A DNA stretch of 64,000 bases from Escherichia phage vB_EcoM_LNA2. The DNA is taken from the sequence record MZ311865.1; one strand, 5' to 3'. Every line of letters begins with the position of its first letter. The first letter of the stretch is position 1. The position numbers and the translations under genes are program-made. Below are positions 26,833-58,178 of the stretch, piece by piece. The notes under the pieces are model-generated. The model did no database searches and was not told the DNA's origin. It saw nothing but the letters and a program-made list of their open reading frames with translations.

Positions 26833-26863
26833 AATTAACTCCTTTGTTGTTTAATTACAGGTG

Positions 26864-26871: not shown

Positions 26872-26878
26872 TCAGTAA

Positions 26879-27400: not shown

Positions 27401-27490
27401 TATTTTTCCTTTCAATTCAGTATAAGAGAGTTTAATTCTAACATTAATTTTATAAAGCGTAATAAATAATAAGGTAACTAAGGAGATATT

Positions 27491-27688
27491 ATGTTTAAAC
27501 TTCCATCGTTAATCAACGCTATTAAAGGCAATAAAAAGAAAACTGCTATCGCTGCAATAGTTGTAGGTGGCATTATTTCATGGAACTTCGGGATTGCGCC
27601 ATTGTTAGTTGCCCATGGTGTTATGGTTCCTTCTGTTCCATTGGATACTGTAGTTGATTTGGCCTTTGCTATTATAGGGCTTGTTTAA
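27491..27688 (+). CDS. Small membrane protein, 65 aa (isolated + strand gene)
   Basis: ORF track; strong SD AAGGAG 7 nt upstream; hydrophobic; convergent with gene 61. Confidence 0.45.
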   Translation: MFKLPSLINAIKGNKKKTAIAAIVVGGIISWNFGIAPLLVAHGVMVPSVPLDTVVDLAFAIIGLV

Positions 27689-28707: not shown

Positions 28708-28746
28708 AGTATTCTCCAGAGGCCTTAAATTAATAAGGCCATCATA

Positions 28747-29214: not shown

Positions 29215-29233
29215 AGGTACCTCCTGAGTATAT

Positions 29234-29431
29234 TTAATCAATTACAAAGATTGCTTTGTCACCATTTATATCTGTGACTTCATACGTAGTGCCTTCATAC
29301 TGTGGAATATTCCAAATTACACCATCATTAGCTTTTACGCTAATATGGCATTGGTGTTTTGAAACAACTTCATAATCTTCAAAACTTGTAAAAACACTAA
29401 TTTTAGAACCAGTGCAAATTGCAGTAGTCAT
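29234..29431 (-). CDS. Hypothetical protein, 65 aa
   Basis: ORF track; GAGGT SD. Confidence 0.45.
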   Translation of the reverse strand: MTTAICTGSKISVFTSFEDYEVVSKHQCHISVKANDGVIWNIPQYEGTTYEVTDINGDKAIFVID

Positions 29432-29432
29432 T

Positions 29433-30083
29433 TTAACCTCGATTCATAAATGCATTAAATATTTGGTCATCAACAGAAATTTCTAATTCGACTTCAATTG
29501 TTTCAGCCTTTTCTTCAGGTGGTAATTCGTATCCACACACTACAATTTTTTCATCGATATCAAAATATACAGAAGCAATACGATTAATGTTACTTTCAGT
29601 TAAGTCTAAATCAACATCAACATCTTTTTGACCTACACTTAAAGGATAACTAATACGGGTTATTTTATTATCTTTAACAAAGAGTCCACCGACATACTCT
29701 GTACTACGTTTGAAGTTTACACGTTTCCGAAATGAAAGATATGATGCATCTTTACCGTGAGCTCGGCTCATAGGACATAATGAATAGCTAGAATAAGAGA
29801 TGTCAAATCCTACACCTTCAATATGAGCCAACGCGTCATGATTAAACCAATTATAATCATATGCCAAATCCATTATATTGTAATATGTGAAAGGCACCGG
29901 ATTAACATCATACGTTGTACCTTTAAAATCTGCCCAGGCAACGATTTCGTTATCTTTAACAATTACAAAAATTACACCAATATGGTATCCGTTATTATTT
30001 TCGTTAGGCGTTATATTATAACATTGTGCATTAGGAAATTTACCATATTTAAATGGCGCATTTTTGTGCATATAATAAATCAT
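29433..30083 (-). CDS. Hypothetical protein, ~216 aa
   Basis: ORF track 29433..30092 (GTG); ATG 30083. Confidence 0.5.
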   Translation of the reverse strand: MIYYMHKNAPFKYGKFPNAQCYNITPNENNNGYHIGVIFVIVKDNEIVAWADFKGTTYDVNPVPFTYYNIMDLAYDYNWFNHDALAHIEGVGFDISYSSYSLCPMSRAHGKDASYLSFRKRVNFKRSTEYVGGLFVKDNKITRISYPLSVGQKDVDVDLDLTESNINRIASVYFDIDEKIVVCGYELPPEEKAETIEVELEISVDDQIFNAFMNRG

Positions 30084-30084
30084 A

Positions 30085-30378
30085 TTATTCACCTGTGATT
30101 TCGGTTACGATATCTTTGTTATCGAAATTAGGGTCACAATACAAAACATAATTGTACTGCATGATACCACCAGACTTAAGTTGTTCAACAACTTTATTAA
30201 CCATATTAGGACGGTCTCGTTTAGTGATGTTCATGATATCAGAGAAGATTTGTTGTTCAACATCTTCTTGATTTGCAGTCATTGACCACTCACAGAGGTC
30301 TTTATCATAACCTGCTGTAACTGGAGCCGGTGCACATGATACTGCAAGTAAGATTGCTGCCAATGATAACTTTTTCAT
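30085..30378 (-). CDS. sp: Spackle-like periplasmic protein (signal peptide)
   Basis: 97 aa; MKKLSLAAILLAVSCAPAPVTAGYDKDLCEWSM... signal peptide; size and position as T4 sp. Confidence 0.65.
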   Translation of the reverse strand: MKKLSLAAILLAVSCAPAPVTAGYDKDLCEWSMTANQEDVEQQIFSDIMNITKRDRPNMVNKVVEQLKSGGIMQYNYVLYCDPNFDNKDIVTEITGE

Positions 30379-30407
30379 TTTAACTCCTTAGTTGATTTGA
30401 TAGGACT

Positions 30408-30437
30408 ACTATACTATAGTCCATCTATAATGTAAAC
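30408..30437 (-). promoter_or_regulatory. Early promoter (GTTTAC-18-TATAGT) upstream of sp
   Basis: Minus strand. Confidence 0.55.
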
Positions 30438-30441
30438 AAGT

Positions 30442-30690
30442 TTATTCTTTTTCGCGAATAATAATTACTTGTTGAGGCTGCTGAGCAGATTTCTTTTCGG
30501 CAACGATAGACCAAATTAAAGTTCCAATCCAACCAATCATCGTCCAGTTAAAGAGTAAAGATACAAAGAAGATTGCTGTTGTGCTTTTTGTGCCACGAAT
30601 AAGTGCGATTACCCAAGGCAACATGTAAATGATGATTGAACCAATACCTGCGATTAAAACTGCTACTGAACTAGCTACGAATAATTCCAT
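30442..30690 (-). CDS. Two-TM inner-membrane protein, possibly superinfection-immunity-like
   Basis: 82 aa; ...YMLPWVIALIRGTKSTTAIFFVSLLFNWTMIGWIGTLIWSIV...; own early promoter. Confidence 0.5.
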   Translation of the reverse strand: MELFVASSVAVLIAGIGSIIIYMLPWVIALIRGTKSTTAIFFVSLLFNWTMIGWIGTLIWSIVAEKKSAQQPQQVIIIREKE

Positions 30691-30718
30691 GTTAATTTCC
30701 TCTTGATTTGTTATGTTT

Positions 30719-30748
30719 ATAATATCTTGTTTTAACTTTGGTGTAAAC
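30719..30748 (-). promoter_or_regulatory. Early promoter (GTTTAC-18-TATTAT)
   Basis: Upstream of membrane protein 30442..30690. Confidence 0.55.
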
Positions 30749-30751
30749 CAA

Positions 30752-31120
30752 TTAATTAAATTTGTTTAAACGTTCAATACACTGGACGTAGTTATTTGCG
30801 ATTTGTTTCTGGGTAGGCTCTTTACCAGTTGTTTCAACATAGCGAATGAATGCGATTTCAGTAGCCTGTAGACAATGTTCTTTAACGCGTTGTTCTTTTG
30901 ACAATGCTACAGTATCAGAGTCACGATAACGTTGAGCATGGGCATCAGCTTGAATCATTCGATTACCTACAGTAACCGGGTCTTCCACTTCAACTTTAGG
31001 TTGGTCGTACTGTTTAACATTCGGATTGTAAATCAGTTGGCCAACGTTATTAGGGATAAAGCCATGGGCACCACATCCGGTTAATCCAAATACCATTGTT
31101 AAAGCGATTAATTTTTTCAT
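30752..31120 (-). CDS. Lipoprotein (lipobox LTGC)
   Basis: 122 aa; MKKLIALTMVFGLTGCGAHG signal peptide with lipobox; own promoter. Confidence 0.55.
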   Translation of the reverse strand: MKKLIALTMVFGLTGCGAHGFIPNNVGQLIYNPNVKQYDQPKVEVEDPVTVGNRMIQADAHAQRYRDSDTVALSKEQRVKEHCLQATEIAFIRYVETTGKEPTQKQIANNYVQCIERLNKFN

Positions 31121-31148
31121 TTTAATTTCCTCTGTAGTTGATAGAAAG

Positions 31149-31178
31149 ATAGTAACATAGTATGTGGTGCTTGTAAAC
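31149..31178 (-). promoter_or_regulatory. Early promoter (GTTTAC-18-TACTAT)
   Basis: Upstream of lipoprotein gene. Confidence 0.5.
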
Positions 31179-31191
31179 AGTTATTTTAAAA

Positions 31192-31380
31192 TTATCGAAA
31201 ATCTGCTTCGAAAACTTTCTCGTCATTAACAAATGCTTTAACTAATGCGTTGTTCACTTCAGCAAGTTGTACCGTAACCCACTCGATTTCTTCGCGATCA
31301 CCTGATAACATGATATCTTTAGTGAACATCTCACCGCTTTTAAACCAACCGATAAAAGTAACTTTAGTTAATTTGCTCAT
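31192..31380 (-). CDS. Dmd-position small protein, ~62 aa
   Basis: ORF track 31192..31401; ATG 31380 with GAGGAA SD; ATGA-coupled. Confidence 0.4.
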   Translation of the reverse strand: MSKLTKVTFIGWFKSGEMFTKDIMLSGDREEIEWVTVQLAEVNNALVKAFVNDEKVFEADFR

Positions 31381-31694
31381 ATTTCCTCGCAAAATGCCCA
31401 TTCAGCGTGATAAACTGTAGCACCTTTAGTATCATTCATTTGAACTACGTCTACCGGAGAAATTACTCGATAGAGACGTGGTTCACCTCCATAAGAGCGT
31501 GCTGCTCGTCCTGCATAAATCTTTGCTAAACCGATATCTTCAGTAAAGAATACACGATCCAAGTTTTTCTTACGTCCAGTTTCAGACAGAACTCCTGTTT
31601 CCTCAGGAGGACAAAGCATGTTTTCGATGTTAGCTGAACTACTTGAACCGTGATAAAAAATCTTAAATTCTGCTTTACAATCGATGGTTTTCAT
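31377..31694 (-). CDS. Hypothetical protein, 105 aa
   Basis: ORF track; own early promoter. Confidence 0.5.
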   Translation of the reverse strand: MKTIDCKAEFKIFYHGSSSSANIENMLCPPEETGVLSETGRKKNLDRVFFTEDIGLAKIYAGRAARSYGGEPRLYRVISPVDVVQMNDTKGATVYHAEWAFCEEI

Positions 31695-31720
31695 TTTGTT
31701 CTCCAGTAGTTGATAGGTCT

Positions 31721-31749
31721 ATAATAACACAACTACTGGAGAAGTAAAC
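31721..31749 (-). promoter_or_regulatory. Early promoter (GTTTAC-17-TATTAT)
   Basis: Upstream of ORF 31377..31694; TTGATAGGTCTATAATA motif. Confidence 0.55.
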
Positions 31750-32124
31750 TTAAAAACGTAATTTAGATATATCTGCGTTGATTTCGGTTTGGTTTGCGTC
31801 GTATGCAATTAAACGAACAGCTTTAGATGGATCATTCAATGCATAGAAATGATGGAACATTGCTCGAACGATATCACCATTTACGAGTTCTACCTGGATA
31901 GGAGAACCTTTTTCGAGTTGGAAATGTTCATAGGCTTTGATGGTTCGCAGATAATCAAGTTTTTGATTTCCGGCTCCAACAATTTGTACGATACGTTTGC
32001 CCATGTTTTCCATACGAGATACAATAGTTTTAGGAGCAAGAATAACGTAGGTTGCCAGCGGAGAAACTACTTCAACAGTGGTGTTTTCGGTGATTGCAGT
32101 AAAAATTGCTTGAGACATATTCAT
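31750..32124 (-). CDS. Hypothetical protein, 124 aa
   Basis: ORF track; own early promoter. Confidence 0.5.
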   Translation of the reverse strand: MNMSQAIFTAITENTTVEVVSPLATYVILAPKTIVSRMENMGKRIVQIVGAGNQKLDYLRTIKAYEHFQLEKGSPIQVELVNGDIVRAMFHHFYALNDPSKAVRLIAYDANQTEINADISKLRF

Positions 32125-32153
32125 AATGTTTTCCTCTTGGTTTGTGTAAGTAC

Positions 32154-32183
32154 ATCATATCATGCCTAGAGGAAGATGTAAAC
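32154..32183 (-). promoter_or_regulatory. Early promoter (GTTTAC-18-TATGAT)
   Basis: Upstream of ORF 31750..32124; adjacent to gene 41 terminator. Confidence 0.5.
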
Positions 32184-32190
32184 CCCGAAA

Positions 32191-32206
32191 GGAGACCGAA
32201 GTCTCC
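32191..32206 (-). terminator. Hairpin after gene 41 (terminator-like, strand ambiguous)
   Basis: GGAGAC-UUCG-GUCUCC; the T-run is stronger on the + strand side. Confidence 0.4.
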
Positions 32207-32212
32207 TTTTTG

Positions 32213-33655
32213 TTAAAATTTTAACTCATTGGCTAAGCTATCTAGGTCAGCACGTGTTGCTTTGGCTTTACCTACGCGTTCCGTACGATTCACCTCTGCC
32301 TGACGCATCTGAGCACCTGCGTTTTCATTTACTGTGTTAGGTGTGTTCATGCCTTCTTGCTCAATCTCAACCCATTTCTGGTTGCCTTTACGTACACCCA
32401 TCAGGAATTTATTCCACTTATTCTTATCACCATATCGTGATTTGATTTGTTTGATAAGTTGTTGTTCAGCTTGTGCAAGTTCTTCGGTTTCAATTACGGC
32501 CAACATGAAATCTGCTGTTGCTGGTAAACCTGCTGATTCTGCAATATCGCTCATGTTCATATCCGAAGCATCCCATGCTGCACGTCCTACTTGAGCTGCA
32601 GTCCATAGAACTGTTTCAGATTCTACTGCTAATGCACGAAGTTCTTCTGCGATAGCTTTAACTAATGTGTAGCTATTTTCAGTGTAAACTCTGATACGAC
32701 AAGACCCACAAATACCTAAGTAATCAACCATGATTACAGATGGCACAAAGTTCTTCTTGAGTTTCAATTCATTAAGCAATGCACGGAATGTATTAGCATT
32801 AGCTCCGCCAGTAGGATACTGTTTAACTACTAAACGTCCTAATGTGGATTTTGAACGCCATTTTTCCATCTTGGCTTTATATTCAGCATAAGATACGTTA
32901 CCATCATCAATATCATCGAGTGATACATCAAGCATGTTTGCATCTATACGCTTAGCACAAACTTCTTCGGCCATTTCCATGGAAATATAAAGAACATTAT
33001 GACCTGTTTGAAGATAATCTGCAGCAAGTGAACAAAGGCCTAAAGATTTACCAACGTTAACACCAGCCATTAAAACATTCAGCGTACCGGTTTCAGCACC
33101 ACCTTTAGTGATTTTATTCAGAATGTTTAATTTGAACGGGACCTTACGTGCTTTATTTAGATAAGAAAGCCAGCGTGCTTCATAGTCTTCCATCCAGTCA
33201 TGTCCAACATAACTATCAAACGAAATTGAAAGTGCTTGACGCATAATATCAGGAATAGCTCCTACGTCAGGCATTTTCTTGTTACGTTGTTCTGGAGGTA
33301 GTTCAGCATTAGACTGAATCTCAATGATTTTGGACGTAGCGTTATACATCGCTTTTTGCTGGACATATTTCTCAGTTTCTTTAACCAACCATTCGTGGTC
33401 TTCAGGAGTATCAGCCAATTTTTCAATTAGGTCTGAAGTTCCTTTATATTCAGCTTCAGTTAAAGAACTGTTATCTAAAGCCACCTTTAATGCATTGATA
33501 GACGGCATTGCATTATATTCGTTAACGTGGCTCTTTATAATTTTAAAGACATTTTTTGCCGGTCCACGCTCAAAATACTCAGAATCCATATAAGGCCAGA
33601 CCTTAGAAAAATAAGCCTGGTCATATACTAGATGAGACAAAATAATTTCTACCAC
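32213..33655 (-). CDS. 41: Replicative DNA helicase gp41 (DnaB family)
   Basis: 480 aa; Walker A GVNVGKS; very close to recalled T4 gp41; GTG start with AAGGAG SD. Confidence 0.9.
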   Translation of the reverse strand: MVEIILSHLVYDQAYFSKVWPYMDSEYFERGPAKNVFKIIKSHVNEYNAMPSINALKVALDNSSLTEAEYKGTSDLIEKLADTPEDHEWLVKETEKYVQQKAMYNATSKIIEIQSNAELPPEQRNKKMPDVGAIPDIMRQALSISFDSYVGHDWMEDYEARWLSYLNKARKVPFKLNILNKITKGGAETGTLNVLMAGVNVGKSLGLCSLAADYLQTGHNVLYISMEMAEEVCAKRIDANMLDVSLDDIDDGNVSYAEYKAKMEKWRSKSTLGRLVVKQYPTGGANANTFRALLNELKLKKNFVPSVIMVDYLGICGSCRIRVYTENSYTLVKAIAEELRALAVESETVLWTAAQVGRAAWDASDMNMSDIAESAGLPATADFMLAVIETEELAQAEQQLIKQIKSRYGDKNKWNKFLMGVRKGNQKWVEIEQEGMNTPNTVNENAGAQMRQAEVNRTERVGKAKATRADLDSLANELKF

Positions 33656-33664
33656 GATAACTCC

Positions 33665-34024
33665 TTAAAAGAATTTAAATTTTTTCTTGGTCCGTTCATT
33701 AAAAGCTTGTTGTACTTGCATTGTAATACATTTTTCAACATGCGGTGCAAGTTCTGCTTTTCTGTCCTGGTCAAGAACTGCAAAGTCCATTACGATTTTA
33801 CCATCAACCCAGTCTAGTTTTGTAATATAGACTATATGATGAGAACCATCTTCAAGTGTAATCAGAATCTCTTGAATGACATTTTCCATTGCTGAACGGA
33901 TAATTTTAAGAGATTCATTAAACACTCGTTCTTTGCGAATGTCTTCCCCTTCCGAAGAAGGGGATTCATCAACGATTTCTAGATTTAAATCATCGAGATT
34001 ATTCATCGAAATCTTCCATTTCAT
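33665..34024 (-). CDS. Gene 40-position protein, ~119 aa
   Basis: ORF track 33665..34027; overlaps uvsX 3' end; position between uvsX and 41. Confidence 0.45.
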   Translation of the reverse strand: MKWKISMNNLDDLNLEIVDESPSSEGEDIRKERVFNESLKIIRSAMENVIQEILITLEDGSHHIVYITKLDWVDGKIVMDFAVLDQDRKAELAPHVEKCITMQVQQAFNERTKKKFKFF

Positions 34025-35171: not shown

Positions 35172-35270
35172 TGTATTTTTCCATAGGCATCATTATATTT
35201 TACTCATGTTTAAAAGATAAGACGATTATATAATAAGGGTTATACAGCATTTAAAACTTTAAACAGGCTC

Positions 35271-35819
35271 TTAACGAGCCCATTTGATAATTTCTGTAAT
35301 CAAATTATTACGTTCGCTTGCATTAAATCCTATAACTTTGTTAGCACCATCATGATTAAGTAATTGATACGTTTGGATTTCGTTATGAATTGCAAACTCT
35401 TCAAAATATGAAATGACTGTATTAAAACCAAATGAAGACAAAGTAATAAGGTCGTCTTCAAAACTTTCAGTCATTTCGTTACGTGTTAAAATAATTGTGA
35501 ACACATCATGGTTTTGGCAAAGACGAACATAGTCCTGTTCATAAACGTCAAGAACCGAGTCCGCATCTTGTCGAATACGTCCGTAAACCCAGTTACTAAT
35601 ATATCCACGGTCTAATAGATAAATCTTAGTAGGGTCTAAATAATTCAACATCGTTTCGAAACAGCCAACTTCATTTCGAGACTTAACATCGAAACGTCCA
35701 TCAACTGTTCGTTTAGGGAAATCAATCTTTACATATCTTTCACTAATTTCCATTATGTCATTAATGAAAGTTGTTTTACCAGCATTATCTGGGCCATCTA
35801 CTAAAATAATTTTAGCCAT
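35271..35819 (-). CDS. P-loop kinase (nucleotide/nucleoside kinase-like)
   Basis: 182 aa; Walker A VDGPDNAGKTT; LLDRGYIS resembles dNK-type motif. Confidence 0.6.
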   Translation of the reverse strand: MAKIILVDGPDNAGKTTFINDIMEISERYVKIDFPKRTVDGRFDVKSRNEVGCFETMLNYLDPTKIYLLDRGYISNWVYGRIRQDADSVLDVYEQDYVRLCQNHDVFTIILTRNEMTESFEDDLITLSSFGFNTVISYFEEFAIHNEIQTYQLLNHDGANKVIGFNASERNNLITEIIKWAR

Positions 35820-35820
35820 T

Positions 35821-36720
35821 TTATTCCTCGATTACGACATCTTCATATTTAGGTATATTATACGGTGAAGAAATTAAAGCGTTAAAGTAGATGAACTCAC
35901 CAAGACCTGGATGGAATACTTCTTCAGGATTTTCGAAATATTGAATTTTCGGACGTCCTTTAAGAATTTGATAGTACTCAGTTTTAGTTGGTTTAAAAAT
36001 TCGAATCAACGCTTCTTCAGGATACTTATTTCTGTCGAAGCTATTATTTGGATCGGTTATATAAAGCGGTTGACCTAATTGAATTGCGCATTCAACAACT
36101 TGTTCAAAACGATAGCATGGGTCACTAATTCGAAATGGATGAAAAATACCATCTAGATGAATAGGAGCCAAATCACCTACAAGACGCTGCATGATGGAAG
36201 GACGTATAACTTTCTGCGTTACGATAATCTTATTACCATCTGCACCAGCGTTAACCAGCACTTCTTTTTGACGTTCATTCAACACAGTAGTTTGAAGTGA
36301 ACGATTAACCGACAACATATCGGTTTTTAAGAATTCGTCAATATAAAAACGTGGTTTATTAGGGTCTGCAGTGATATTGAAATTGAATTCCGCATCAAAA
36401 GCGCCGTCATATCCAGTGATATCTGTGATTAGAAAATCACAGTCATAATAAGCAATTAATGAATCAACCACAAATTCATTTTCAGACCAGAAATATTTAC
36501 GAGTGTTATACGCGTTATCTTTATACCATAATGGAACAAACTTAAATTCTGGAAAAAGACGTTCGCATTCTTTAATATCAGATGCATTACGTGGATATGT
36601 AATCACATCACCCGGATTAGCACGGTGCAAATGAAGTTGGAAGTTGCCATCCTTAAGGATAGCATACTGTCCAGTTTCATAAGACCGCATACTCAAGATA
36701 GGTACGCGGAAAATAGCCAT
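35821..36720 (-). CDS. Hypothetical protein, 299 aa (occupies T4 beta-gt position)
   Basis: ORF track; no recognised motif; TAATG-coupled to TS-like gene. Confidence 0.5.
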   Translation of the reverse strand: MAIFRVPILSMRSYETGQYAILKDGNFQLHLHRANPGDVITYPRNASDIKECERLFPEFKFVPLWYKDNAYNTRKYFWSENEFVVDSLIAYYDCDFLITDITGYDGAFDAEFNFNITADPNKPRFYIDEFLKTDMLSVNRSLQTTVLNERQKEVLVNAGADGNKIIVTQKVIRPSIMQRLVGDLAPIHLDGIFHPFRISDPCYRFEQVVECAIQLGQPLYITDPNNSFDRNKYPEEALIRIFKPTKTEYYQILKGRPKIQYFENPEEVFHPGLGEFIYFNALISSPYNIPKYEDVVIEE

Positions 36721-37436
36721 TAGTCAAGGAATCCTTTAACATAATCAAAATCACGTTCAAACACATGGGCACTTACCATGGTATGAGTATAATCACCAAC
36801 TTCTACACCACATTCTTTAGCGATATAATGAAGTAATTTTCCTTGGAGATAAAAATCCAACTGCATAACAACAGCACAGTTCTGAGAACGCATATGACAG
36901 TGGGTATAAAGCTTACCATCACGAATATAATAAGTCACTGAGTCAGTACATGGATATTCAAGTGTTTCGTCCGAATCAAGCAAAGCCTGATCAGAACTTT
37001 CTAGAATTTGGAACACAACTCTTCGAGAGTTAGGCTTCTCTTTAAGTTCTTTTAGAAGAGCTGGTAATTGGGCCGCAATGCGAGGACCATAGAAAGTGTT
37101 GAAGTTCGCCGGCAAAACATCTGATTTTGGTTTAGAAATAAATTTAGCGACATTAGGATATGCCTTAAACGCTTCTTCTGCGTTGGTACCACCAGAAATC
37201 ATAAACTTCCAGAAGTCTTCGGCATATTCATAAGAGATGCGGTTAATACGTGGGTCGGTCATTTTGAATGATGATGGAGTGTCAACAACTACTGTCATAG
37301 ACCCAATTTCATTACAACGTCCAATACGAGAATCAGTTACGAATTCCGGGTTTTCTAAAATTTCACGATTGACAGCTTTAAATGCGGATTGAAAATCTGC
37401 GGCTTTAATATATTTCATTGTGTTATGTTTTCCCAT
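36720..37436 (-). CDS. Thymidylate-synthase-family pyrimidine hydroxymethylase-like enzyme (gene 42 position, divergent)
   Basis: 238 aa; NSRRVVFQ, YPCTDSVTYY and MRSQN resemble recalled T4 gp42 DSRRGIMIY, FMCTNTVQY, MRSND, but overall divergent. Confidence 0.65.
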   Translation of the reverse strand: MGKHNTMKYIKAADFQSAFKAVNREILENPEFVTDSRIGRCNEIGSMTVVVDTPSSFKMTDPRINRISYEYAEDFWKFMISGGTNAEEAFKAYPNVAKFISKPKSDVLPANFNTFYGPRIAAQLPALLKELKEKPNSRRVVFQILESSDQALLDSDETLEYPCTDSVTYYIRDGKLYTHCHMRSQNCAVVMQLDFYLQGKLLHYIAKECGVEVGDYTHTMVSAHVFERDFDYVKGFLD

Positions 37437-37714
37437 GTTTACCTCAATACAATTTATTATATACTCAATTCATAAAGCTTATTTGAATTTCTTAGCGATG
37501 TTGATATAACGTAAAGCTTCAGCATCGATATTTCCAAGAACACTATGAAGAAATGCATCAGCGTAGTATTACAGTTGAACAGGTTCTTTAATCACTTTAG
37601 CCGCTTTAGTTTCAAACAGGCCCATCAGGGCCTTTTTAAGAATTTGTTCGTTAGTGTTCAGTTTCGTAGTCAAAATCTCTTCATTAAGTTGGTGGTTAAA
37701 AGTTTTTCTAGAAA

Positions 37715-38875
37715 TCATTCCGGGTACCTCAAAGCGTCATCAGAGTTAGTTATATCAATAATAGATATAGAGTTTTCTGATAACCCATTTTTAGATAACT
37801 GACGTTTATAATATCTTTCACAATATGTACACGTTGACCCACAGATTTCATTAGCACAATCGAAATCTGGATGTCTGAACCACCTTTTTTCTAAAAAGCC
37901 ATCTAACAAAGAGGTTTCAATATTTACTGTATGTGAAAACTCAGTTTCGTTTTCAAGAGTGAAAATAGTCTCTAAAGGCTTCCACAGTTCTAACAAATTA
38001 CCTTCAAACTTTTCAGAAGCGTATGCTTCAAGAACTTTCAAAATGTAGTCTGTGCTACCTGTACGTCCTGAAACTTTGAATTGAGTGATACCAATATCAT
38101 TATAAAGTTTCAAATCTTGAGGACGAACAAAACGAGTTCTCAACCAGTTAAATGGGTCTGTATCACGAGCTTTAATACAGTGCTGCATAGGATATCCGTT
38201 TAAGGATTTAGCATCATCAGCTGTAACATCAGTACTATGGAAAATATAGCAAGAGTCACGATAGCTACAATGTGTTGTATACCCTTTACCAGCATTAGAA
38301 CAGAACTCATTTACAAGAACTTCAAATATTATATTGTTCTTATTACAAAACTCTGCTGCACGCTTCAGGAAAGAAACTGAACGGTTCTTATGAATTCCAC
38401 AGCAGACCTTTTTGATATTATATTGGTCGTGCAAGTATTTGATTTGAGTTACAGCATCGACATGTAGAATTGTTGAAACTTCAATCTCAATGTCTTTATT
38501 GACTTCACGAACAATTTCCATAACAACAGGGTTAGCGATAGTAATACGCCATACGCCTATTGACCAAAGATACTGAACATAATCCTGAATAGCTTTCTTC
38601 TTCCACTCAACTAGTTCTCTTTTTGAACCAGGATTTATCGTGTTGAGTGTATAGTTAAAGCAAATACCTAATTCGTTACAACGTTTAACGTAATCTTCTA
38701 ACATCTTTTTGTCAACGTCAGGAAGCCTAAAATCAGGTCTGGCTGCTACAAAAGCCATTTCTCTTGTAGAGCCGTATACTTCGTTTATCAAGCTATTAGG
38801 ATAAGTTTTATTGAGCTCTACGATTTTATCAAGAAGAGCTAAATCAAAATTCGTTCCGATTTTAAAAGTATTCAT
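37715..38875 (-). CDS. Hypothetical enzyme with C-terminal Cys cluster, 386 aa
   Basis: ORF track; DCANEICGSTCTYCE cluster; no confident family. Confidence 0.5.
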   Translation of the reverse strand: MNTFKIGTNFDLALLDKIVELNKTYPNSLINEVYGSTREMAFVAARPDFRLPDVDKKMLEDYVKRCNELGICFNYTLNTINPGSKRELVEWKKKAIQDYVQYLWSIGVWRITIANPVVMEIVREVNKDIEIEVSTILHVDAVTQIKYLHDQYNIKKVCCGIHKNRSVSFLKRAAEFCNKNNIIFEVLVNEFCSNAGKGYTTHCSYRDSCYIFHSTDVTADDAKSLNGYPMQHCIKARDTDPFNWLRTRFVRPQDLKLYNDIGITQFKVSGRTGSTDYILKVLEAYASEKFEGNLLELWKPLETIFTLENETEFSHTVNIETSLLDGFLEKRWFRHPDFDCANEICGSTCTYCERYYKRQLSKNGLSENSISIIDITNSDDALRYPE

Positions 38876-38933
38876 TTTTTTGCATCTCGCGTTAATTGAT
38901 GCGATGGTTTTTTTGCAGGTCTTACTTAAATTA

Positions 38934-39335
38934 TTATAGATTCGGTTTATACGATTTAAATGTTTCGAATTCGCCTTTATTCATAAGAGCTTTGAATTCG
39001 TCAGGACGCATAGCTTTGTCGTCGATAATCCAATCATATACTGGTTTATGTGTTAGCAAATTATGGTACTTCAAGCCAATGTTTGCCAAGTTCTGAATCA
39101 GACTTGGGAGAATGTCAATTGCTATACGACCAGGACCTACTGACTTCATACCGCGAGCAGTGTAAAGCGTTATGGTATGCCCTGCATCATACAGAGCATT
39201 AATGGCAGACACCATTTCGGTGTCTGGTTTGAAGTTCACGTAATCACGATTGTTATTCCATTCCGTGATGCAATCATCGACATCAAAACAAAGATTAAGC
39301 ATGTTTTCTACACGGTGCATTAGATTCGTTCCCAT
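38934..39335 (-). CDS. HAD-superfamily phosphatase (KdsC/GmhB-like small phosphatase)
   Basis: 133 aa; motif I FDVDDCIT, motif II LYTAR, later K and IIDD. Confidence 0.6.
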   Translation of the reverse strand: MGTNLMHRVENMLNLCFDVDDCITEWNNNRDYVNFKPDTEMVSAINALYDAGHTITLYTARGMKSVGPGRIAIDILPSLIQNLANIGLKYHNLLTHKPVYDWIIDDKAMRPDEFKALMNKGEFETFKSYKPNL

Positions 39336-41005
39336 TGATGAGTGATATCGCCACCGATTGGACGATAGGAAACACCAGTTTCTTTATCAGTTAGTACCCA
39401 TTTACCAGGATTTTTTGTAATCAGAGTAGCCGTTACAGGTTCTGCTACGTCATAACTAATAGAGCCGTCTTGAAGTACACGGCCCATATTACGTAATTGC
39501 TTAGTCAGAAGTTCCATACCTTTATAATATGCGGCTACCGCTTTAAGTGGATTATTCTTGAAATAACCACCTAATGCAATCCAGATAATTGCTACAGCCA
39601 AATGATGATACTCGTTAAACGAACTCATCTTTCCATATTTGTAAACTAGTGGATTGATGTTAATAGTCACATTACAAGTTGTTTCGTCAATAGTAAACTG
39701 TCCCCAGGTCGGATTAGCGTTGAATTCATCATAACCTGAAACAGCATAAAGCACTTTAGCTTCATCGTACAATTTTGGCCCGTAAATCTTGGTTTCACCA
39801 AAATATCCACGAGGGTCGATAAACTTGACTTCGCCGTTATCAGTAATCATAGTATTACTGAAGTTCGGGTCGCCGTGAATAACAGAGTACTGTCCCTGAG
39901 AACGGTTATGATAACGAATAAGGTGTTCTAAAGCTTGTTTCAGCATTGGCTTCAGACGTCCAATCTTAGTGTAGTTCACATGTGTGATTTTACCAAATGA
40001 ATCAATCAATGGTTGAATGCTTTCACAACGATCAATAACTTTCGTATAGAATTCTTTAGTGAAATCACGACGAACAGTTTCAGGACTTACAAAATAAGTG
40101 TCTGTGCTGAATTTCAGTGCATCTAAAATTGCACCAACAATTTGTGGACGAGCAAGACTTGATTTGGATTTAATATATTCAAATGCCGGCTTACCTTTAA
40201 TGCGTTCCATTTCAAAGTTATTTTCATTAACAGAAACTAACTGAGGGACTGAATCTGATTTCACTTTAAGATACCATGAAATCTCATCTTTCTGAAGAGC
40301 TCGACCCTGTTCGGTTAATGCGAATTTAGTTACAGTTTCTTCACCAATTTCAACTGCATTAAAACTACGATTAAGTTCACGAACTTCATGAGCTTTTTCA
40401 AGTTTAGGCATATCACCTAAATCAATTAGATTCATAAGCTCTGATTTATTGAATGTGCTGCCGTAAAGGAATTCTACGAAATCACGTCCTTTGCAGTATT
40501 CATGAATTTCCTCATCAGTAGAACCCATATAGAATTCCCAGTCTTTGAACTGATAAATTCCTACAACATTACCACCTGTTGAACCTACGTTAGTGATATT
40601 TTCACCGTCGAAATTATATCGACATTCGTCACCCTTAACATAGATTGCGTTAACATTCCAAGACCATGAACCAAAATCGGGAATAATATCACACCAGTTA
40701 ACAATTACGTTATGGCCGTCTAAATCTTTGTGTAATTTAGCAAGAGCATAAGCAGAACCATACGCTTCATCAACTGTACGAATAGTCACATTGAACTCTT
40801 CTTGCTCACAATAAGCTCGAACAGTTTCAGCAAATTTTGAATGAACTACTACAATAATTTCATCTGCGCCAAGGTCAGAATAAATTGTATACAAATTGCT
40901 CAGAATAGTGTCTTGTTTATAGTTAACAAGCACCTTAGGAATATGATGCGTTATTGGATACAAACGAGTTGCTAATCCAGCACCAAGAATAACAGCTTTT
41001 TTCAT
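39320..41005 (-). CDS. Bifunctional sugar-1-phosphate nucleotidyltransferase / APH-type sugar kinase
   Basis: 561 aa; N-term KAVILGAGLATRL (G-x-G-T-R nucleotidyltransferase signature); C-term VIHGDPNFSNTMI...KFIDP (APH/choline-kinase catalytic motif). Confidence 0.65.
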   Translation of the reverse strand: MKKAVILGAGLATRLYPITHHIPKVLVNYKQDTILSNLYTIYSDLGADEIIVVVHSKFAETVRAYCEQEEFNVTIRTVDEAYGSAYALAKLHKDLDGHNVIVNWCDIIPDFGSWSWNVNAIYVKGDECRYNFDGENITNVGSTGGNVVGIYQFKDWEFYMGSTDEEIHEYCKGRDFVEFLYGSTFNKSELMNLIDLGDMPKLEKAHEVRELNRSFNAVEIGEETVTKFALTEQGRALQKDEISWYLKVKSDSVPQLVSVNENNFEMERIKGKPAFEYIKSKSSLARPQIVGAILDALKFSTDTYFVSPETVRRDFTKEFYTKVIDRCESIQPLIDSFGKITHVNYTKIGRLKPMLKQALEHLIRYHNRSQGQYSVIHGDPNFSNTMITDNGEVKFIDPRGYFGETKIYGPKLYDEAKVLYAVSGYDEFNANPTWGQFTIDETTCNVTININPLVYKYGKMSSFNEYHHLAVAIIWIALGGYFKNNPLKAVAAYYKGMELLTKQLRNMGRVLQDGSISYDVAEPVTATLITKNPGKWVLTDKETGVSYRPIGGDITHQWERI

Positions 41006-41033
41006 GTTGTGGTCCTCATTGGTAAGTAGGTGT

Positions 41034-41058
41034 ATTGTACACTATTCTAGTTAAAGCA
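41034..41058 (-). promoter_or_regulatory. Middle-promoter-like element (MotA box TGCTTTA, 12-nt spacer, TACAAT)
   Basis: Minus-strand AATGCTTTAA-N12-TACAAT about 30 nt upstream of the nucleotidyltransferase/kinase gene. Confidence 0.45.
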
Positions 41059-41190
41059 TTCATACTTTGCTTGTAGTCCAATCATAATCCATCCAATTAC
41101 AAGTGTTGGAATCATTACTGGAGCCGTTAAGCTCCAGTAGATAGTCATGGCAAGCATCAATAGTAAAAGTCCTATTGTTATTGCTTTCAT
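41047..41190 (-). CDS. Small hydrophobic protein, 47 aa (not in ORF track)
   Basis: Hand translation MKAITIGLLLLMLAMTIYWSLTAPVMIPTLVIGWIMIGLQAKYECFN; ATGA overlap with SIS gene. Confidence 0.35.
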   Translation of the reverse strand: MKAITIGLLLLMLAMTIYWSLTAPVMIPTLVIGWIMIGLQAKYECFN

Positions 41191-41822
41191 TGTTCGCCTC
41201 GTAACATGGCACCTAGTGCACCGCCTGGATGGAACTTAAGGAAGTCATTAGAGGTAAATCCACGTTCAGACGAAAGGTTGATAGCAAACGTATCGATAAG
41301 CGCTAACAACAATGTAGTGGACATAGTCGGAGCCAGAGAATTCTCATCAACCTCTACCGCGATGCCTGTACAGAAAGAGTAATCAAAAAGGGCTTCATTT
41401 TCTTGTGGAATGTCTGGGTTACAATGCAACAGAATCTGTTTGACGTTCGGTCGAATCATTTTAAGATGCTTAGCCACGCCTATCATTTCTTCAGTTTTAC
41501 CAGAACGACTAATATGAATCAACACATCATTAGGCGCAATGAATCCTGCATCACCGTGAGAATAATGCCCAGTGTTCAAGTACATACTCGGGATACCGAG
41601 TGAAGCAAATGTCTCAGAAGCTTTAGTTGCAATATTAGCATTCTTACCAACACCTGTAATAATTACTCGGCTTTCATAATTACTAAGTCCCGGGCGTCGA
41701 AGAGTTTCTAGAATAGCATTATAACGAGCAGGGTTTTGACTAATTACTTTGGCCATAGCGGCCAAAGAAGAAGCTTGTTTTATGATTGCGTCAATAGCGA
41801 TAGTAATAGGAGTAGTTTTCAT
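41187..41822 (-). CDS. SIS-domain sugar-phosphate isomerase, KdsD/GutQ arabinose-5-phosphate isomerase-like (no CBS domains)
   Basis: 211 aa; GVGKN...TFASLGIPS...HGD.G...ISRSGKTEE...LAPTMSTT...FHPGGALG parallels E. coli KdsD SIS domain as I recall it. Confidence 0.65.
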   Translation of the reverse strand: MKTTPITIAIDAIIKQASSLAAMAKVISQNPARYNAILETLRRPGLSNYESRVIITGVGKNANIATKASETFASLGIPSMYLNTGHYSHGDAGFIAPNDVLIHISRSGKTEEMIGVAKHLKMIRPNVKQILLHCNPDIPQENEALFDYSFCTGIAVEVDENSLAPTMSTTLLLALIDTFAINLSSERGFTSNDFLKFHPGGALGAMLRGEQ

Positions 41823-41862
41823 ATTTCTCTCATTTAATTAGTTTACCGTCCATGGCATTATA

Positions 41863-44574
41863 TCAAAAATCGAACATATCGAACAGAGATGCTTTCTTCT
41901 CGTAATCGAGTTTCGCTGCTGATGTGAATCCTTCAAGTGGTTTAATAAATGTCTTCTCAAGGAGAACAGTGTAGTCCATCCAATGAAGTACATCGTCTTT
42001 AATTAAATCTGTGATTTCAGTACCAGAAGGCCATGCGATACATTTATCACCGAATGGGTTTCCTTCACGTAAAGGCAGAACATATACTTTTTCACCTTCT
42101 ACAACTTGTGGTGCATCGATATTACCTTTGATAGCCCGGTTATACGTCAGAATTCCACGAATATGGAACGGGCATTTAGGACCAGGGAATCCACCGACGT
42201 CATATTTAGCAATGTTATTCGCAGAAGATACCGACGCGATGCTAATATAATTCAATTGACGGAATTCTTTTTCAAACTCTTTAAAATATTCTTGTAATGA
42301 TTCTTCACCTTCTTGAAGCATACGACGAATACATTCTTTAAGAGCTTTCTGTACTGCTTTAGGAGTCGAAGATTTCTGAGTCTCTAGACCCATGATTTTG
42401 AGTTTAGGCTCAGCGTAACGAGTACCTTCCATATCCCACACGTTTAATGCATAACGTTTCTTACCAGTCCAAAATCCGCCAATACCTTTAGAACCGAGTG
42501 GAGGCCCAGCGATAGCTTCTCGGTCCATGAACATTAAGTGTTGTTTATTGTTCATGTATTCACACATTTCACGGAAACCTCTATCAATAGCAGGTTCCAT
42601 ACGTTCATGTGCAAACTTATCTAAGAAGTCTACCCAATGGTTGGTATCACGGAATTTAGATTCACCAACCTTATCAATAATTTTATCTGCAGATACGTAA
42701 ATGGAGTCTGTATCACCATATAGAACGAAAGCTTCACCTTCTGTACCACAAACTTCATTCAGATATTCATTAACTTTACGTTCAATCCACTGTAAAGCCA
42801 TTTGCCCGAATGTTGTGATTGCAGTAGCATTACGCAAATCATAATAACGGAACCAAACGTTTCCAAGTGCACCATAAAGCGAGTTGATGAGCAATTTACG
42901 GTTAATCTGTGCAGTCATACCTGCAACTTCAGTACGTTGAGCTCTAAACAACATTTCATTAAGAGATTTAGCAGACAACTTTTTAATCTTTTCTTTAATC
43001 TCGTCAGTGAAGTCGAAACGATAATCAACATCTAATGGTTCGTCAACAGAAAGATTAGGATTATGCAATGCCTCTTTAATTATTTCACCATTACGTTGAG
43101 CTGCAAGCATGTAACCTTTATGTTCTTTACGTTGATTAAAGACCTTAGTGATTTCAGTTGGAACTACACCATCACGGTCTTTATAATACATCATGCCGTT
43201 AGGAGAACAACTGTACACATCAGAAGGACGTTCAGCAACAGCGTTAATATAATCATGCAATGGAGCTACTTTAAACGTTCCTGCTATTGTTTCTGGGCTA
43301 ATATTCACTTGGCGAATGATGCTTGGATACAGAGATGTAAGGTCGAAACTCATTACATATTTGTATCGATTTGGAATAGGTTCCTTAACAAAAGCGCCAG
43401 GATAAGGTTGAACCGGGTGAGAACGACCTTGTGGAATCACCTTGTTCTGCTCTTTAAGGCTATTAAAAATAATAGCATCCCATGTTTTAATTGGACTAAA
43501 CACAGATTGAATCTGTATCTTAGCATAATAACCCATGTCCAAACTCAAGTTGATGAACTGACGCTTAGCATCAATTTGCAATACACGATACACGTCGATA
43601 ATGTTATAAGAAATATATCGTTGGTGATTGCTTTCACGAAGCTTAGAAATAGGGCCGTCATATTTCAGTTTACCAACGTTCAATTCAAATTCTGAAATGT
43701 AATCCAGAGAATACGACGGTTGATTGGTAAAAGAGAATTTTTTGTAAAGGTCAATGTAATCAAGAACAGAGATACCGAACAATGTAATGATTTCACGAGA
43801 ACCATACATGTTTTCGATAACTTTAACACGAGTTTTACGATGTGGTGATAAACGTTTCGCAGTAGATTCGCCAAAAATATTCTTGATTCGGTTATACACA
43901 TATGGAATATCAAATGACTCAACGTTCCATCCAGTCAAAATGACAGGAGTTTTCTGTTGCCAGAAGTTGAGATATTCCATCAACAATTCTTTTTCGTTAT
44001 CGAACGGCATATAAATGATTTTATCGATAATTTCAGATGGAACTTCATCACCACCTTGTTCTTGAAGTTTAGCAGCGATTTCAATAGACCATTCTTCTAC
44101 ATTACCGTATGGAGAATTCAATAGATCAAATACGTAGAACCTGTCGTCAATTGAGTCATAATGGGTGATAGCATCAATCGGATGTTTTGCTTGTGACGGC
44201 TCAGGGAACCCATCTGGAGATGTTACTTCGATGTCGAAGTTAGCCACACGAATTTTTGTATGGTCGTATTTGATTTCATAGTTATAAGTGTCAGACAAAT
44301 ACGCCAATTTGAAATCGTCCATGCCAAGTGCTTCAAGTCCGATATCTTCCATGCGTTTAATCCATTGGGAGGCATCACGCATATTAGCGAACAACTTACG
44401 AGTACACGGCTTACCGTAGATATCGAAATATTTCGTAGCCTGACTTTCCGGACAATGAGCAAACAGTGATGGTTTATATTCTACTTCACGAGTACGTTCA
44501 CGGCCATTAGAATCGATGTAACGTTCAAAAATTGAATCACCAATCTGTTCAACCGTTAAGTAAAATTCTTTCAT
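41863..44574 (-). CDS. 43: DNA polymerase gp43 (family B)
   Basis: 903 aa; exo motifs FDIE; pol motifs DxxSLYPS and YGDTDS. Confidence 0.95.
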   Translation of the reverse strand: MKEFYLTVEQIGDSIFERYIDSNGRERTREVEYKPSLFAHCPESQATKYFDIYGKPCTRKLFANMRDASQWIKRMEDIGLEALGMDDFKLAYLSDTYNYEIKYDHTKIRVANFDIEVTSPDGFPEPSQAKHPIDAITHYDSIDDRFYVFDLLNSPYGNVEEWSIEIAAKLQEQGGDEVPSEIIDKIIYMPFDNEKELLMEYLNFWQQKTPVILTGWNVESFDIPYVYNRIKNIFGESTAKRLSPHRKTRVKVIENMYGSREIITLFGISVLDYIDLYKKFSFTNQPSYSLDYISEFELNVGKLKYDGPISKLRESNHQRYISYNIIDVYRVLQIDAKRQFINLSLDMGYYAKIQIQSVFSPIKTWDAIIFNSLKEQNKVIPQGRSHPVQPYPGAFVKEPIPNRYKYVMSFDLTSLYPSIIRQVNISPETIAGTFKVAPLHDYINAVAERPSDVYSCSPNGMMYYKDRDGVVPTEITKVFNQRKEHKGYMLAAQRNGEIIKEALHNPNLSVDEPLDVDYRFDFTDEIKEKIKKLSAKSLNEMLFRAQRTEVAGMTAQINRKLLINSLYGALGNVWFRYYDLRNATAITTFGQMALQWIERKVNEYLNEVCGTEGEAFVLYGDTDSIYVSADKIIDKVGESKFRDTNHWVDFLDKFAHERMEPAIDRGFREMCEYMNNKQHLMFMDREAIAGPPLGSKGIGGFWTGKKRYALNVWDMEGTRYAEPKLKIMGLETQKSSTPKAVQKALKECIRRMLQEGEESLQEYFKEFEKEFRQLNYISIASVSSANNIAKYDVGGFPGPKCPFHIRGILTYNRAIKGNIDAPQVVEGEKVYVLPLREGNPFGDKCIAWPSGTEITDLIKDDVLHWMDYTVLLEKTFIKPLEGFTSAAKLDYEKKASLFDMFDF

Positions 44575-44586
44575 TTAATTTCCTTT

Positions 44587-44602
44587 AGACGAGTTATTGT
44601 CT
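44587..44602 (-). promoter_or_regulatory. Gene 43 translational operator hairpin (loop AAUAACUC)
   Basis: mRNA AGAC-AAUAACUC-GUCU just 5' of the gene 43 SD; loop matches the T4 gp43 operator loop as I recall it. Confidence 0.55.
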
Positions 44603-44635
44603 TTTGTTTGTTGATGAACTTATTATACTCCAAAT

Positions 44636-44649
44636 GGGACCGAAGTCCC
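44636..44649 (-). terminator. UUCG-tetraloop hairpin after regA (terminator or stabilising element)
   Basis: GGGAC-UUCG-GUCCC 6 nt after regA stop; weak U-tract. Confidence 0.4.
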
Positions 44650-44655
44650 ATTGCT

Positions 44656-45024
44656 TTAATTACCAATTGTATATTTTGCTTTCAAAGTCCAGTCATCTTT
44701 CTGTTTAAAAGAGATGACACGGAAGTTATTAGTCAGGCCAAACAGATCTTCACGAGCAGAGTCTTCAATAACAATCAAGCCCCAGTCTTCAAGCAACTGA
44801 GCAATCGAATCACGTCGCTGATAGTCTTCACCATCAATATCAACCTGCCGTCCATCCATACGCAACATTTCTTTAAAGTGGACGATGTAGTATTTACCTT
44901 GCTTTTGGAGGATATGACAGGACTGATAAAGGACTTTATCCTTGTTATTAGCGATGCCCATACGGGTCAGAGTCTCTTTGACTTTCAGAAAATCTTCGGG
45001 GTTCTTCAATTTAATTTCGATCAT
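44656..45024 (-). CDS. regA: Translational repressor RegA
   Basis: ORF track 44656..45033; from MIEIKLKNPEDFLKVKETLTRMGIANNKDKVLYQSCHILQK... matches recalled T4 RegA. Confidence 0.85.
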   Translation of the reverse strand: MIEIKLKNPEDFLKVKETLTRMGIANNKDKVLYQSCHILQKQGKYYIVHFKEMLRMDGRQVDIDGEDYQRRDSIAQLLEDWGLIVIEDSAREDLFGLTNNFRVISFKQKDDWTLKAKYTIGN

Positions 45025-45026
45025 TT

Positions 45027-45590
45027 TTACCATTCCAATGCTAATTTTTTAAATTGTTTTTGTTCTTTCACATTTTTTGTAACTTCTTTGAGAAACTCAT
45101 CAGTGACCATGGCCTTCAGTTCTTTAAGGACTATTGGCAACTTGTTATTTTTTTCAAGGAGCCGCTTATACTCGGTAGCATCATTCATGTTGATTGTGTA
45201 ATGTTTCATCAACAGTTTGATAACTAGTAACTCTGAAGTGTCTTCGACTAGTTTAGCCCATTTAGAGAATCGACGACCACGCGGAATTGCCGCCATCATA
45301 TAGTTGAAGTGCGCTTCATCACTTAATTCAGAACCGACTAAGTTCATCATGTAAACAGCTGGCATACATTCTGGGAACTGGGATAATGAGTTCTCAACCA
45401 TAAATTTTGAATAGTCGACCTGAGCAATTGACATAGATTTCTTTTCATTAATAGCATTAATGATTTTAAAAAATTCATTCTCAGGTTTTTCTTTAAACAT
45501 ATCAGCACATTTTTGAATCGCATCAGCGTCATTAGACTTCCATGCAATTTGGTGCTCGTTAAGCTGGACGTCATCATCAAATAAGTTCAT
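45027..45590 (-). CDS. 62: Clamp loader small subunit gp62
   Basis: 187 aa; T4 synteny 45-44-62-regA-43. Confidence 0.85.
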
Positions 45591-56364: not shown

Positions 56365-58178
56365 TGGTGTTTAACCCTATGCATGATTTCTTTATTTTTA
56401 CCGAGATTAAATCCGCGTTCGTTCGGATTTCCCAAATAACCGCACGTTCTTCTTATTGTGTTCATCTTTTTAGGATCAGTTTCTCCACAAATAGAACAAA
56501 CAAATCCGTTTTCAGTAGGAGTCATTTCATGGGTACTTCCACACGTAAAACATTTATCTACTGGCATATTAACACCAAAATAATCTAAATGTTGTGCAGC
56601 ATAATCCCACACGGCCTCAAGACCTTTTAAGTTATTTTTCATATCAGGAAGTTCAACATAAGAAATGTGACCGCCGGTCGCTATGAAATGATATGGTGCT
56701 TCGCGAGAAATCTTTTCAAACGGAGTGATATTTTCTTCTACTGAAACGTGGAAACTGTTAGTATACCAGCCTTTATCGGTAACATCTTTTACACTTCCAT
56801 ATTTTTCGGTATCAAGTTTACAGAAGCGATAACAAAGGTTTTCAGCAGGAGTAGAATATAAACTAAAAGCAAATCCAGTTCTTTCAGACCACTGTTTAAG
56901 ATGAGCATTCATTTTAGTTAAAATTTCTTGCCCAATATCACGACCAACAAGAATATTCAATTCGTGAATACCAATGTATCCTAAGGACACTGAACTTCTA
57001 CCGTTTTTAAATAACTCAATTATATCGTCATCAGGTTTAAGACGAACCCCGAATGCACCTTCTTGGTAAAGAATAGGAGCAACAGTTGCTTTAACACCCT
57101 TTAAAGAACTAATTCTACACATCAAGGCTTCAAAACACAGATCCATTCGTTCATTAAATAGCTCAACAAATTTCTGTTCATTGAATTGTGTTCCAATATA
57201 AGAATCTAACGCAATACGAGGAAGATTCAGTGTTACAACACCAAGATTATTACGTCCATCAAGAATTTCATTTCCAGTCGAATCTTTCCATACACTCAAG
57301 AAACTACGACAACCCATTGGAGAAACAGGAATAGATGAACCAGTGATAGCTTTATTGTTCTTAACTGAAATAATATCAGGATACATTCTTTTGCTTGCAC
57401 ACTCTAGGGCAAGCTGCTTAATATCATAGTTCGGGTCGTCTTTATAAAGATTGACACCCTCTTCAATGAACATAACAAGTTTAGGGAAAATAGGAGTTAT
57501 TCCATCACGACCAAGGCCTTTAATGCGGTTTTTAAGAATTGCTTTCTGAATAATTCGTTCAGTCCAGTCAGTTCCAGTACCAAATGTAATTGTTACAAAA
57601 GGCGTTTGACCGTTTGAGCTAAAAAGAGTATTTACTTCATACTCATAAGCTTGAAATGCATCGTATACGTCTTTTTCTGTTTTAGATTGGGCATAATTCA
57701 ACGCATCAGCGATTTGCCATTTTTCTGCATCCTCAATATGTTTTGCATAGGTGCGTTTAACATAAGGAGAAAGTACTTTATCTACATTAGCAAAAGTCGT
57801 TCCGCCGTACTGATGTGAAGCAACCTGTGCGGTAATTTGTGCCATAATTGCAGTAGCAACACCAATCGATTTAGGCGTTTCAATTTGAGCATTACCTAGC
57901 TTAAACCCGTTTTCAAGCATTCCTTTTAAATCTACTAAACAGCAATTAGTAAATGGAAGAGCAGGGGAATAATCAATATCATGGAAATGGATAATTCCGC
58001 TTTCATGTGCTTTCATAATAAAAGACGGGACCATATTTTTGGCAATGTGCTTAGACACAATACCAGCCATAAGGTCCCGTTGAGTTGGAAAAACACGAGA
58101 ATCTTTATTAGCATTCTCGTTCAAAAGATCTTTATTAGTTTTATGAATTAATCCTTCAATTTCTTTTTCAATTTTCAT
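56361..58178 (-). CDS. nrdD: Anaerobic ribonucleotide reductase NrdD (glycyl radical enzyme), uninterrupted
   Basis: 605 aa; C-terminal glycyl radical motif RRTCGYLG and Zn-ribbon CxxC...CxxC. Confidence 0.9.
   Translation of the reverse strand: MKIEKEIEGLIHKTNKDLLNENANKDSRVFPTQRDLMAGIVSKHIAKNMVPSFIMKAHESGIIHFHDIDYSPALPFTNCCLVDLKGMLENGFKLGNAQIETPKSIGVATAIMAQITAQVASHQYGGTTFANVDKVLSPYVKRTYAKHIEDAEKWQIADALNYAQSKTEKDVYDAFQAYEYEVNTLFSSNGQTPFVTITFGTGTDWTERIIQKAILKNRIKGLGRDGITPIFPKLVMFIEEGVNLYKDDPNYDIKQLALECASKRMYPDIISVKNNKAITGSSIPVSPMGCRSFLSVWKDSTGNEILDGRNNLGVVTLNLPRIALDSYIGTQFNEQKFVELFNERMDLCFEALMCRISSLKGVKATVAPILYQEGAFGVRLKPDDDIIELFKNGRSSVSLGYIGIHELNILVGRDIGQEILTKMNAHLKQWSERTGFAFSLYSTPAENLCYRFCKLDTEKYGSVKDVTDKGWYTNSFHVSVEENITPFEKISREAPYHFIATGGHISYVELPDMKNNLKGLEAVWDYAAQHLDYFGVNMPVDKCFTCGSTHEMTPTENGFVCSICGETDPKKMNTIRRTCGYLGNPNERGFNLGKNKEIMHRVKHQ

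Follow-up and report, generated by a model that had tools for sequence, protein, structure and literature searches.

The DNA polymerase of phage T4, gp43, represses the translation of its own mRNA, and its operator is composed of a hairpin and of nucleotides overlapping with the ribosome binding site (RBS) (Uzan & Miller 2010, PMC3014915). Two other publications (Gold 2015, PMC4661202; PMC6161095) likewise describe the 8-nt loop of this hairpin and an operator that shares sequence with the RBS. The hairpin is 18 nt long in T4 and 16 nt long in phage RB69, and the two share the nucleotides of the loop with its core -UAAC-, and the 3' AC of the loop is important (PMC3014915). In RB69, the operator RNA can be crosslinked to the palm domain of gp43 (PMC3014915). 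For operator binding and autogenous repression by this protein, PMC3014915 cites Wang, Pavlov & Karam 1997 and Petrov & Karam 2002; the experimental basis of these two activities is taken here from two reviews or secondary papers. It is also known from the literature that binding of RNA and binding of DNA by gp43 are mutually exclusive and that the T4 and RB69 proteins differ in their RNA specificity.

A related case is the gene 32 leader of T4 and RB69, where a nucleic-acid-binding replication protein likewise represses its own mRNA when it is off the DNA. However, this concerns another protein and another gene, and the gene 32 leader works through a pseudoknot, an A/U-rich tract, and cooperative binding. 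At the gene 43 operator, no pseudoknot is predicted in our folds and none is described in PMC3014915.

The regA-43 spacer and its hairpin

The stretch of DNA analyzed here (64 kb, hereafter called the window) carries gene 43 on the minus strand at 41863..44574, an open reading frame of 903 aa with the Pfam domains DNA_pol_B_exo1 and DNA_pol_B. It encodes a family-B replicative DNA polymerase, which would make it both the regulated gene and the source of the repressor. The protein matches RB69 gp43 structures (1CLQ, 1IH7, 1IG9, and others) end to end at ca. 2090 bits (2093), followed by polymerase chain 9E5Y (898 residues, ca. 1284 bits), which is probably T4 gp43. Compared to RB69 gp43 (NP_861746), only 2 out of 903 residues differ (S523T and R656H). 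The upstream neighbor of gene 43 is regA (44656..45033, minus strand), which encodes a translational repressor of 125 aa (Pfam Translat_reg, E = 4.9e-60), and because regA lies directly upstream of gene 43 the sequence between them is the regA-43 spacer. With the gene for the clamp (45) and those for the clamp loader (44 and 62), the order on the minus strand is 45-44-62-regA-43, i.e., the classical T4-type replication cluster.

In megablast searches this region belongs to Mosigvirus, the RB69 group, of which ca. 150 records match the spacer at 99% identity or more. Together with 30-nt flanks, the spacer is identical to the RB69 reference NC_004928 at 141 of 141 nt, and over 10 kb the identity is 98.4% (window 35224..45224 versus RB69 24000..34000). 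The phage represented by the window is a near relative of RB69 and not necessarily RB69 itself. Downstream of gene 43, the same 10-kb stretch also carries sugar-isomerase and nucleotidyl-transferase-like genes; there is a published paper on DNA arabinosylation in RB69 (PMC6024577).

Within the spacer, positions 44587..44602 read agacgagttattgtct on the plus strand and, as reverse complement in the sense of the minus-strand gene, AGACAAUAACUCGUCU in the mRNA. This sequence forms the hairpin AGAC-AAUAACUC-GUCU with a 4-bp stem (5' arm 44602..44599, 3' arm 44590..44587) and an 8-nt loop (44598..44591). RNAfold returns the structure ((((........)))) at -2.2 kcal/mol as both minimum free energy (MFE) and centroid fold of the 16-mer, and the same stem and loop appear in MFE and centroid folds of 38-, 51-, and 101-nt contexts. 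The stem cannot be extended because the flanking bases are A and A. Only 1 nt separates the 3' end of the hairpin at 44587 from the Shine-Dalgarno (SD) sequence AAGGA of gene 43 (44585..44581, minus strand), which is kept as AAGGA or AGGA at this place in relatives. A spacer of 6 nt leads from there to the AUG (44574..44572), so that 12 nt lie between hairpin and start codon. A first-pass annotation made from the DNA alone had claimed this hairpin just upstream of the gene 43 SD, and letters, coordinates, and fold all agree with that description, including its wording, given the order of hairpin, SD, and AUG. Following the published description of the operator (PMC3014915, PMC4661202), the full element would span hairpin, SD, and AUG (44572..44602, minus strand), all of which gp43 would cover to keep out the 30S subunit.

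Compared to the RB69 gene 43 operator, we found no substantive difference, with spacer, flanks, and the 16-nt hairpin all being identical. The T4 operator likewise lies in the regA-43 spacer 5' of the SD, where a 5-bp stem encloses the loop AAUAACUC (...AGAGCCUAAUAACUCGGGCUAUAAACUAAGGAAUAUCUAUG; in full: ...UUGGAGUAUAAUAUAUCAAG AGCCU AAUAACUC GGGCU AUAAACUAAGGAAUAUCUAUG), and seven T4-type sources agree in this sequence. The first-pass annotation had equated the 8-nt loop of the window with that of the T4 operator and proposed an alignment with the T4 regA-43 region; this was right, as the T4 genome carries AGCCU-AAUAACUC-GGGCU at the equivalent position and the two loops are identical. A T4 loop of different sequence, which the annotation had named as its refutation, was not found. 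The order of the module is also shared, with a terminator-like UUCG hairpin, GGAGTATAAT, the operator hairpin, and the SD. However, with its 5 bp (AGCCU/GGGCU, closing pair U.G) the stem of T4 is longer than the 4-bp stem of the window (AGAC/GUCU, closing pair C-G), and the T4 hairpin lies 8 nt instead of 1 nt from the SD and 18 nt instead of 12 nt from the AUG. Due to the different closing pair, the “top 10 bases identical” of PMC3014915 become 9 out of 10 here. The spacer of the window has otherwise diverged from T4, with 10-nt indels on either side of the hairpin.

Comparing the T4 stretch (L001, 364-402) with 44572..44602 of the window, we distinguish two structural subtypes of the operator. 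In the RB69-type subtype (Mosigvirus, Dhakavirus, Gaprivervirus, Marfavirus, and Kanagawavirus) the hairpin lies 0–3 nt from the SD, whereas the T4-type subtype (Tequatrovirus, Jiaodavirus, and Gelderlandvirus) has an extra AUAAAC-like spacer of 7–12 nt and a fifth pair, U.G or C-G.

The remainder of the spacer follows a layout in which the regA stop codon (44658..44656) is succeeded by a UUCG hairpin, GGAGUAUAAU, an A/C-rich spacer of 19 nt, and the operator. The terminator-like hairpin AAUGGGAC-UUCG-GUCCCAUU (44633..44652, minus strand), recognized by its fold and in a terminator scan, lies 3 nt past the regA stop and is kept with compensatory changes in T4, JS98, F48, and PEi20. The conserved block GGAGUAUAAU (44622..44631, minus strand) joins GGAG to a -10-like TATAAT at 44627..44622, and TTGGAGTATAAT is conserved across several genera. 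This TATAAT is probably the -10 element of a gene 43 middle promoter, from which transcripts would start with a leader of ca. 40–45 nt that contains the operator. The MotA box of middle promoters is TGCTT and is expected ca. 30 nt upstream of the start. GCUU is present in the loop of the UUCG hairpin ca. 30 nt upstream of the start proposed here, i.e., at the expected place, so that one sequence may serve as terminator and as middle-promoter element. GGAG is the cleavage motif of RegB, and its copy in this module (44622..44652) could be a RegB cleavage site. In T4, expression of gene 43 is MotA-dependent (PMC6024815).

In JS98 (L002, 92-307) and PEi20 (L004, 347-565), an extra hypothetical open reading frame of ca. 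71 aa is found between regA and gene 43, and the module of terminator-like hairpin, TATAAT, and operator is still located directly 5' of gene 43.

Covariation of the stem and specificity of the site

Regions upstream of gene 43 were compiled from phages in GenBank and from 59 IMG/VR loci that were collected by alignment (an exact-peptide scan had given only two). A hairpin with an 8-nt loop is present at the same position in Tequatrovirus, Mosigvirus, Dhakavirus, Gaprivervirus, and Kanagawavirus and also in Marfavirus, Jiaodavirus, Gelderlandvirus, and Gualtarvirus (at least nine genera overall) as well as in IMG/VR contigs. For the analysis of covariation we took the loop as anchor and compared 20 distinct 22-mers, while two loci that bear the motif and pair one nucleotide out of register (L033 and L049) were left out. 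Among these 20 sequences, which had been admitted by loop motif and at least four pairs, the four inner pairs are formed in all 20, with two to four pair types at each position and exchanges between GC, AU, UA, and CG (e.g., GC 8, UA 6, AU 4, and CG 2 at one of them); a fifth pair is found in the T4-type subset. Double-sided changes fill 33 cells compared to 9.4 in shuffles, and none of 500 shuffles reached 33. The covariation score is 0.918 versus 0.278 in shuffles and falls to 0.19 or less when the register is slid, with pairing dropping to 25–45%. No stem-breaking single substitutions were seen in close relatives. Judged by these comparisons, the stem is a genuine RNA helix under selection, with compensatory changes preserving its pairs around a conserved loop.

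The loop follows the consensus AAU[A/C/U]ACUC, with positions 1, 5, and 6 invariant in the 20 hairpins and positions 2, 3, and 7 conserved to at least 90%. At position 4, different genera have A, C, or U, and rare changes occur at position 8. The loop reads AAUCACUC in JS98 and S16, among others (L002, L007, L012, L029-31, and L042-47), and AAUUACUC in F48 and PEi20, among others (L003, L004, L055, L059, L060, and L071), while AAUCACUU (L058) and AAUAACUG (L064) were each found at a single locus. Beyond direct support for the helix from covariation, the survey offers, as a modest gain, a list of loop variants found in nature, with which the evolution of RNA specificity in a DNA polymerase could be examined.

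The gene 43 hairpin is absent in the sampled relatives from Acinetobacter, Krischvirus, Aeromonas, and Vibrio phages and in a distant Klebsiella relative, and this absence fits the remark that some T4-related polymerases do not autoregulate (PMC3014915). Phages of the Roskildevirus type (Erwinia phage FBB1 [L010] and L006/L034) are without the 8-nt-loop hairpin and show AGCC-ACAC-GGCU, i.e., a 4-bp stem with a tetraloop, at the equivalent place 5' of AAUAAACUAAGGAA.

Thermodynamically, the hairpin of the window is marginal with -2.2 to -3.2 kcal/mol, values that are equaled by 7–21 of 200 shuffles (12 of 200 for the 16-mer alone with its -2.2 kcal/mol). We have therefore dropped folding energy as an argument, and the significance of the site comes from its position and its comparative conservation. 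The octamer AATAACTC occurs five times in the 64-kb window compared to 4.0 expected copies, while the 16-mer is unique in the window at up to two mismatches (0.03 expected). A covariance model built from the 20 homologous hairpins, the window's own among them, scores 29.3 bits (E = 3.5e-5) at the gene 43 site as the sole significant match in the window; it found no other operator-like site there, the next best match reaching 14.3 bits (E = 0.57). Searches of 44300..44900 with the 4227 covariance models of Rfam 15 at E <= 10 gave only chance-level matches to unrelated families, with no model matching the hairpin, and 16 nt are too short for such models to be informative.

Another copy of AATAACTC at 57489..57506 (minus strand) is flanked by a 5-bp stem (GAUGG/CUAUU) with two G.U pairs. 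It lies ca. 680 nt inside the coding sequence of nrdD (anaerobic ribonucleotide reductase) with no start codon nearby and gave no covariance model score at E <= 10. We judged this second candidate operator to be a probable chance occurrence, with a prior of ca. 3% given the four other copies of the octamer.

Function of the hairpin

The reading that we favor, with a probability of roughly 0.93, is that the hairpin serves gene 43 of an RB69-type phage as its translational operator and mediates autogenous negative feedback by gp43. A conserved autogenous repression had already been implied by the first-pass annotation, and the suggestion gains support from a spacer that is identical to that of RB69, from a polymerase that differs from RB69 gp43 at two residues, and from the published repression in RB69. 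As free gp43 that is off primer-template DNA builds up, it would bind the gene 43 mRNA at the AGAC-AAUAACUC-GUCU hairpin and at the single-stranded RNA next to it, which includes the SD. Since the hairpin is only 1 nt away from the SD, bound gp43 would be expected to block binding of the 30S subunit and thereby to repress translation of gene 43, with the geometry of this occlusion and the extent of the occupied RNA deduced from the layout of the site. Synthesis of the polymerase would then be limited once gp43 exceeds the available sites on DNA. As an element, the RB69 gene 43 operator is already known, and recognizing it here is correct but ordinary and involves no new inference. For the window, this means no more than a correct annotation, with the known autoregulatory operator of RB69 in the gene 43 leader (5'), so that the polymerase can be expected to limit its own output through translation.

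Alternatively, the hairpin might be kept for a role in the RNA that is independent of gp43, e.g., as a stabilizer against RNase E or exonucleases or as a determinant of binding or cleavage by RegA or RegB. Its location would suit such a role because a transcript begun at the conserved TATAAT would reach it after ca. 25 nt, with regA immediately upstream of the spacer and GGAG conserved 25 nt upstream of the hairpin. However, a strictly conserved loop sequence on a stem whose sequence varies freely points to sequence-specific recognition of the loop rather than to a generic stabilizing hairpin, and a stem of -2.2 kcal/mol is too weak for a good nuclease barrier. RegA sites are unstructured, A+U-rich, and overlap the AUG, and the literature assigns the operator RNA to gp43 (PMC3014915). 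We therefore consider a role apart from gp43 very unlikely.

The weak folding energy with its modest z-score and the chance-level frequency of the octamer would also be compatible with a fortuitous inverted repeat in an AT-rich spacer, whose loop match to T4 was inherited and is functionless in this lineage. Against this stand the retention of the loop and the compensatory changes of the stem in a spacer that has otherwise diverged from T4, the near-identical spacers of the many Mosigvirus records, and the published experiments with RB69 (PMC3014915), which make a mere coincidence extremely improbable. Finally, the inverted repeat could act in the DNA, either as the operator of a transcription factor or as part of a promoter or origin, given that it is located 20–35 nt downstream of the conserved -10-like TATAAT and that a weak promoter-like match on the plus strand (9/12) overlaps it. 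Yet its place right beside the SD is in line with control of translation, and 8 of the 20 aligned sequences have U.G as closing pair while L032 has G.U. These pairs exist only in the RNA of the minus strand, whereas the complement would have A/C mismatches, so that the helix must have been selected in this RNA and not in duplex DNA. We have rejected a DNA-level operator on these grounds and regard any such function as almost certainly wrong.

The Muldoonvirus loop and the SELEX variant

The first SELEX experiment, performed by Tuerk and Gold in 1990, is said to have targeted the T4 gene 43 operator, and the “major variant” selected there reportedly bound T4 gp43 as well as the wild type. In all four Muldoonvirus genomes examined, i.e., Serratia phages PS2 (NC_024121; L048/L081), Muldoon (L049), and SP1 (L079) as well as Cronobacter phage VP8 (L080), we found AGCAACCU instead of AAUAACUC in the operator hairpin. 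The two octamers differ at exactly four positions, with -CAAC- replacing -UAAC-, and we take AGCAACCU to be this major variant. Published descriptions of the variant as having “four changes” (PMC4661202) or “-CAAC-” (PMC3014915) are consistent with this sequence. Whether a natural phage carries the variant had been raised as a question in 2010 (PMC3014915); in the literature searched we found no report of its natural occurrence, and full-text searches with the loop octamers returned only unrelated siRNA/miRNA papers.

The Muldoonvirus octamer is thus an apparent natural counterpart of the SELEX major variant. If the Muldoonvirus hairpins function as operators, nature would have found both winners of the selection, which would answer the question of PMC3014915. 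More broadly, it is tempting, though for now slightly on the speculative side, to view the gp43 operator as a widespread, co-evolving RNA-protein pair whose natural sequence space may mirror the first SELEX experiment.

The PS2 hairpin (positions ca. 256–275 of L048) has the sequence GUGUCCAGCAACCUGGACGU, i.e., GUGUCC-AGCAACCU-GGACGU, and folds as GUCCAG-CAAC-CUGGAC. In Muldoon, SP1, and VP8, one extra G precedes the AGCAACCU octamer.
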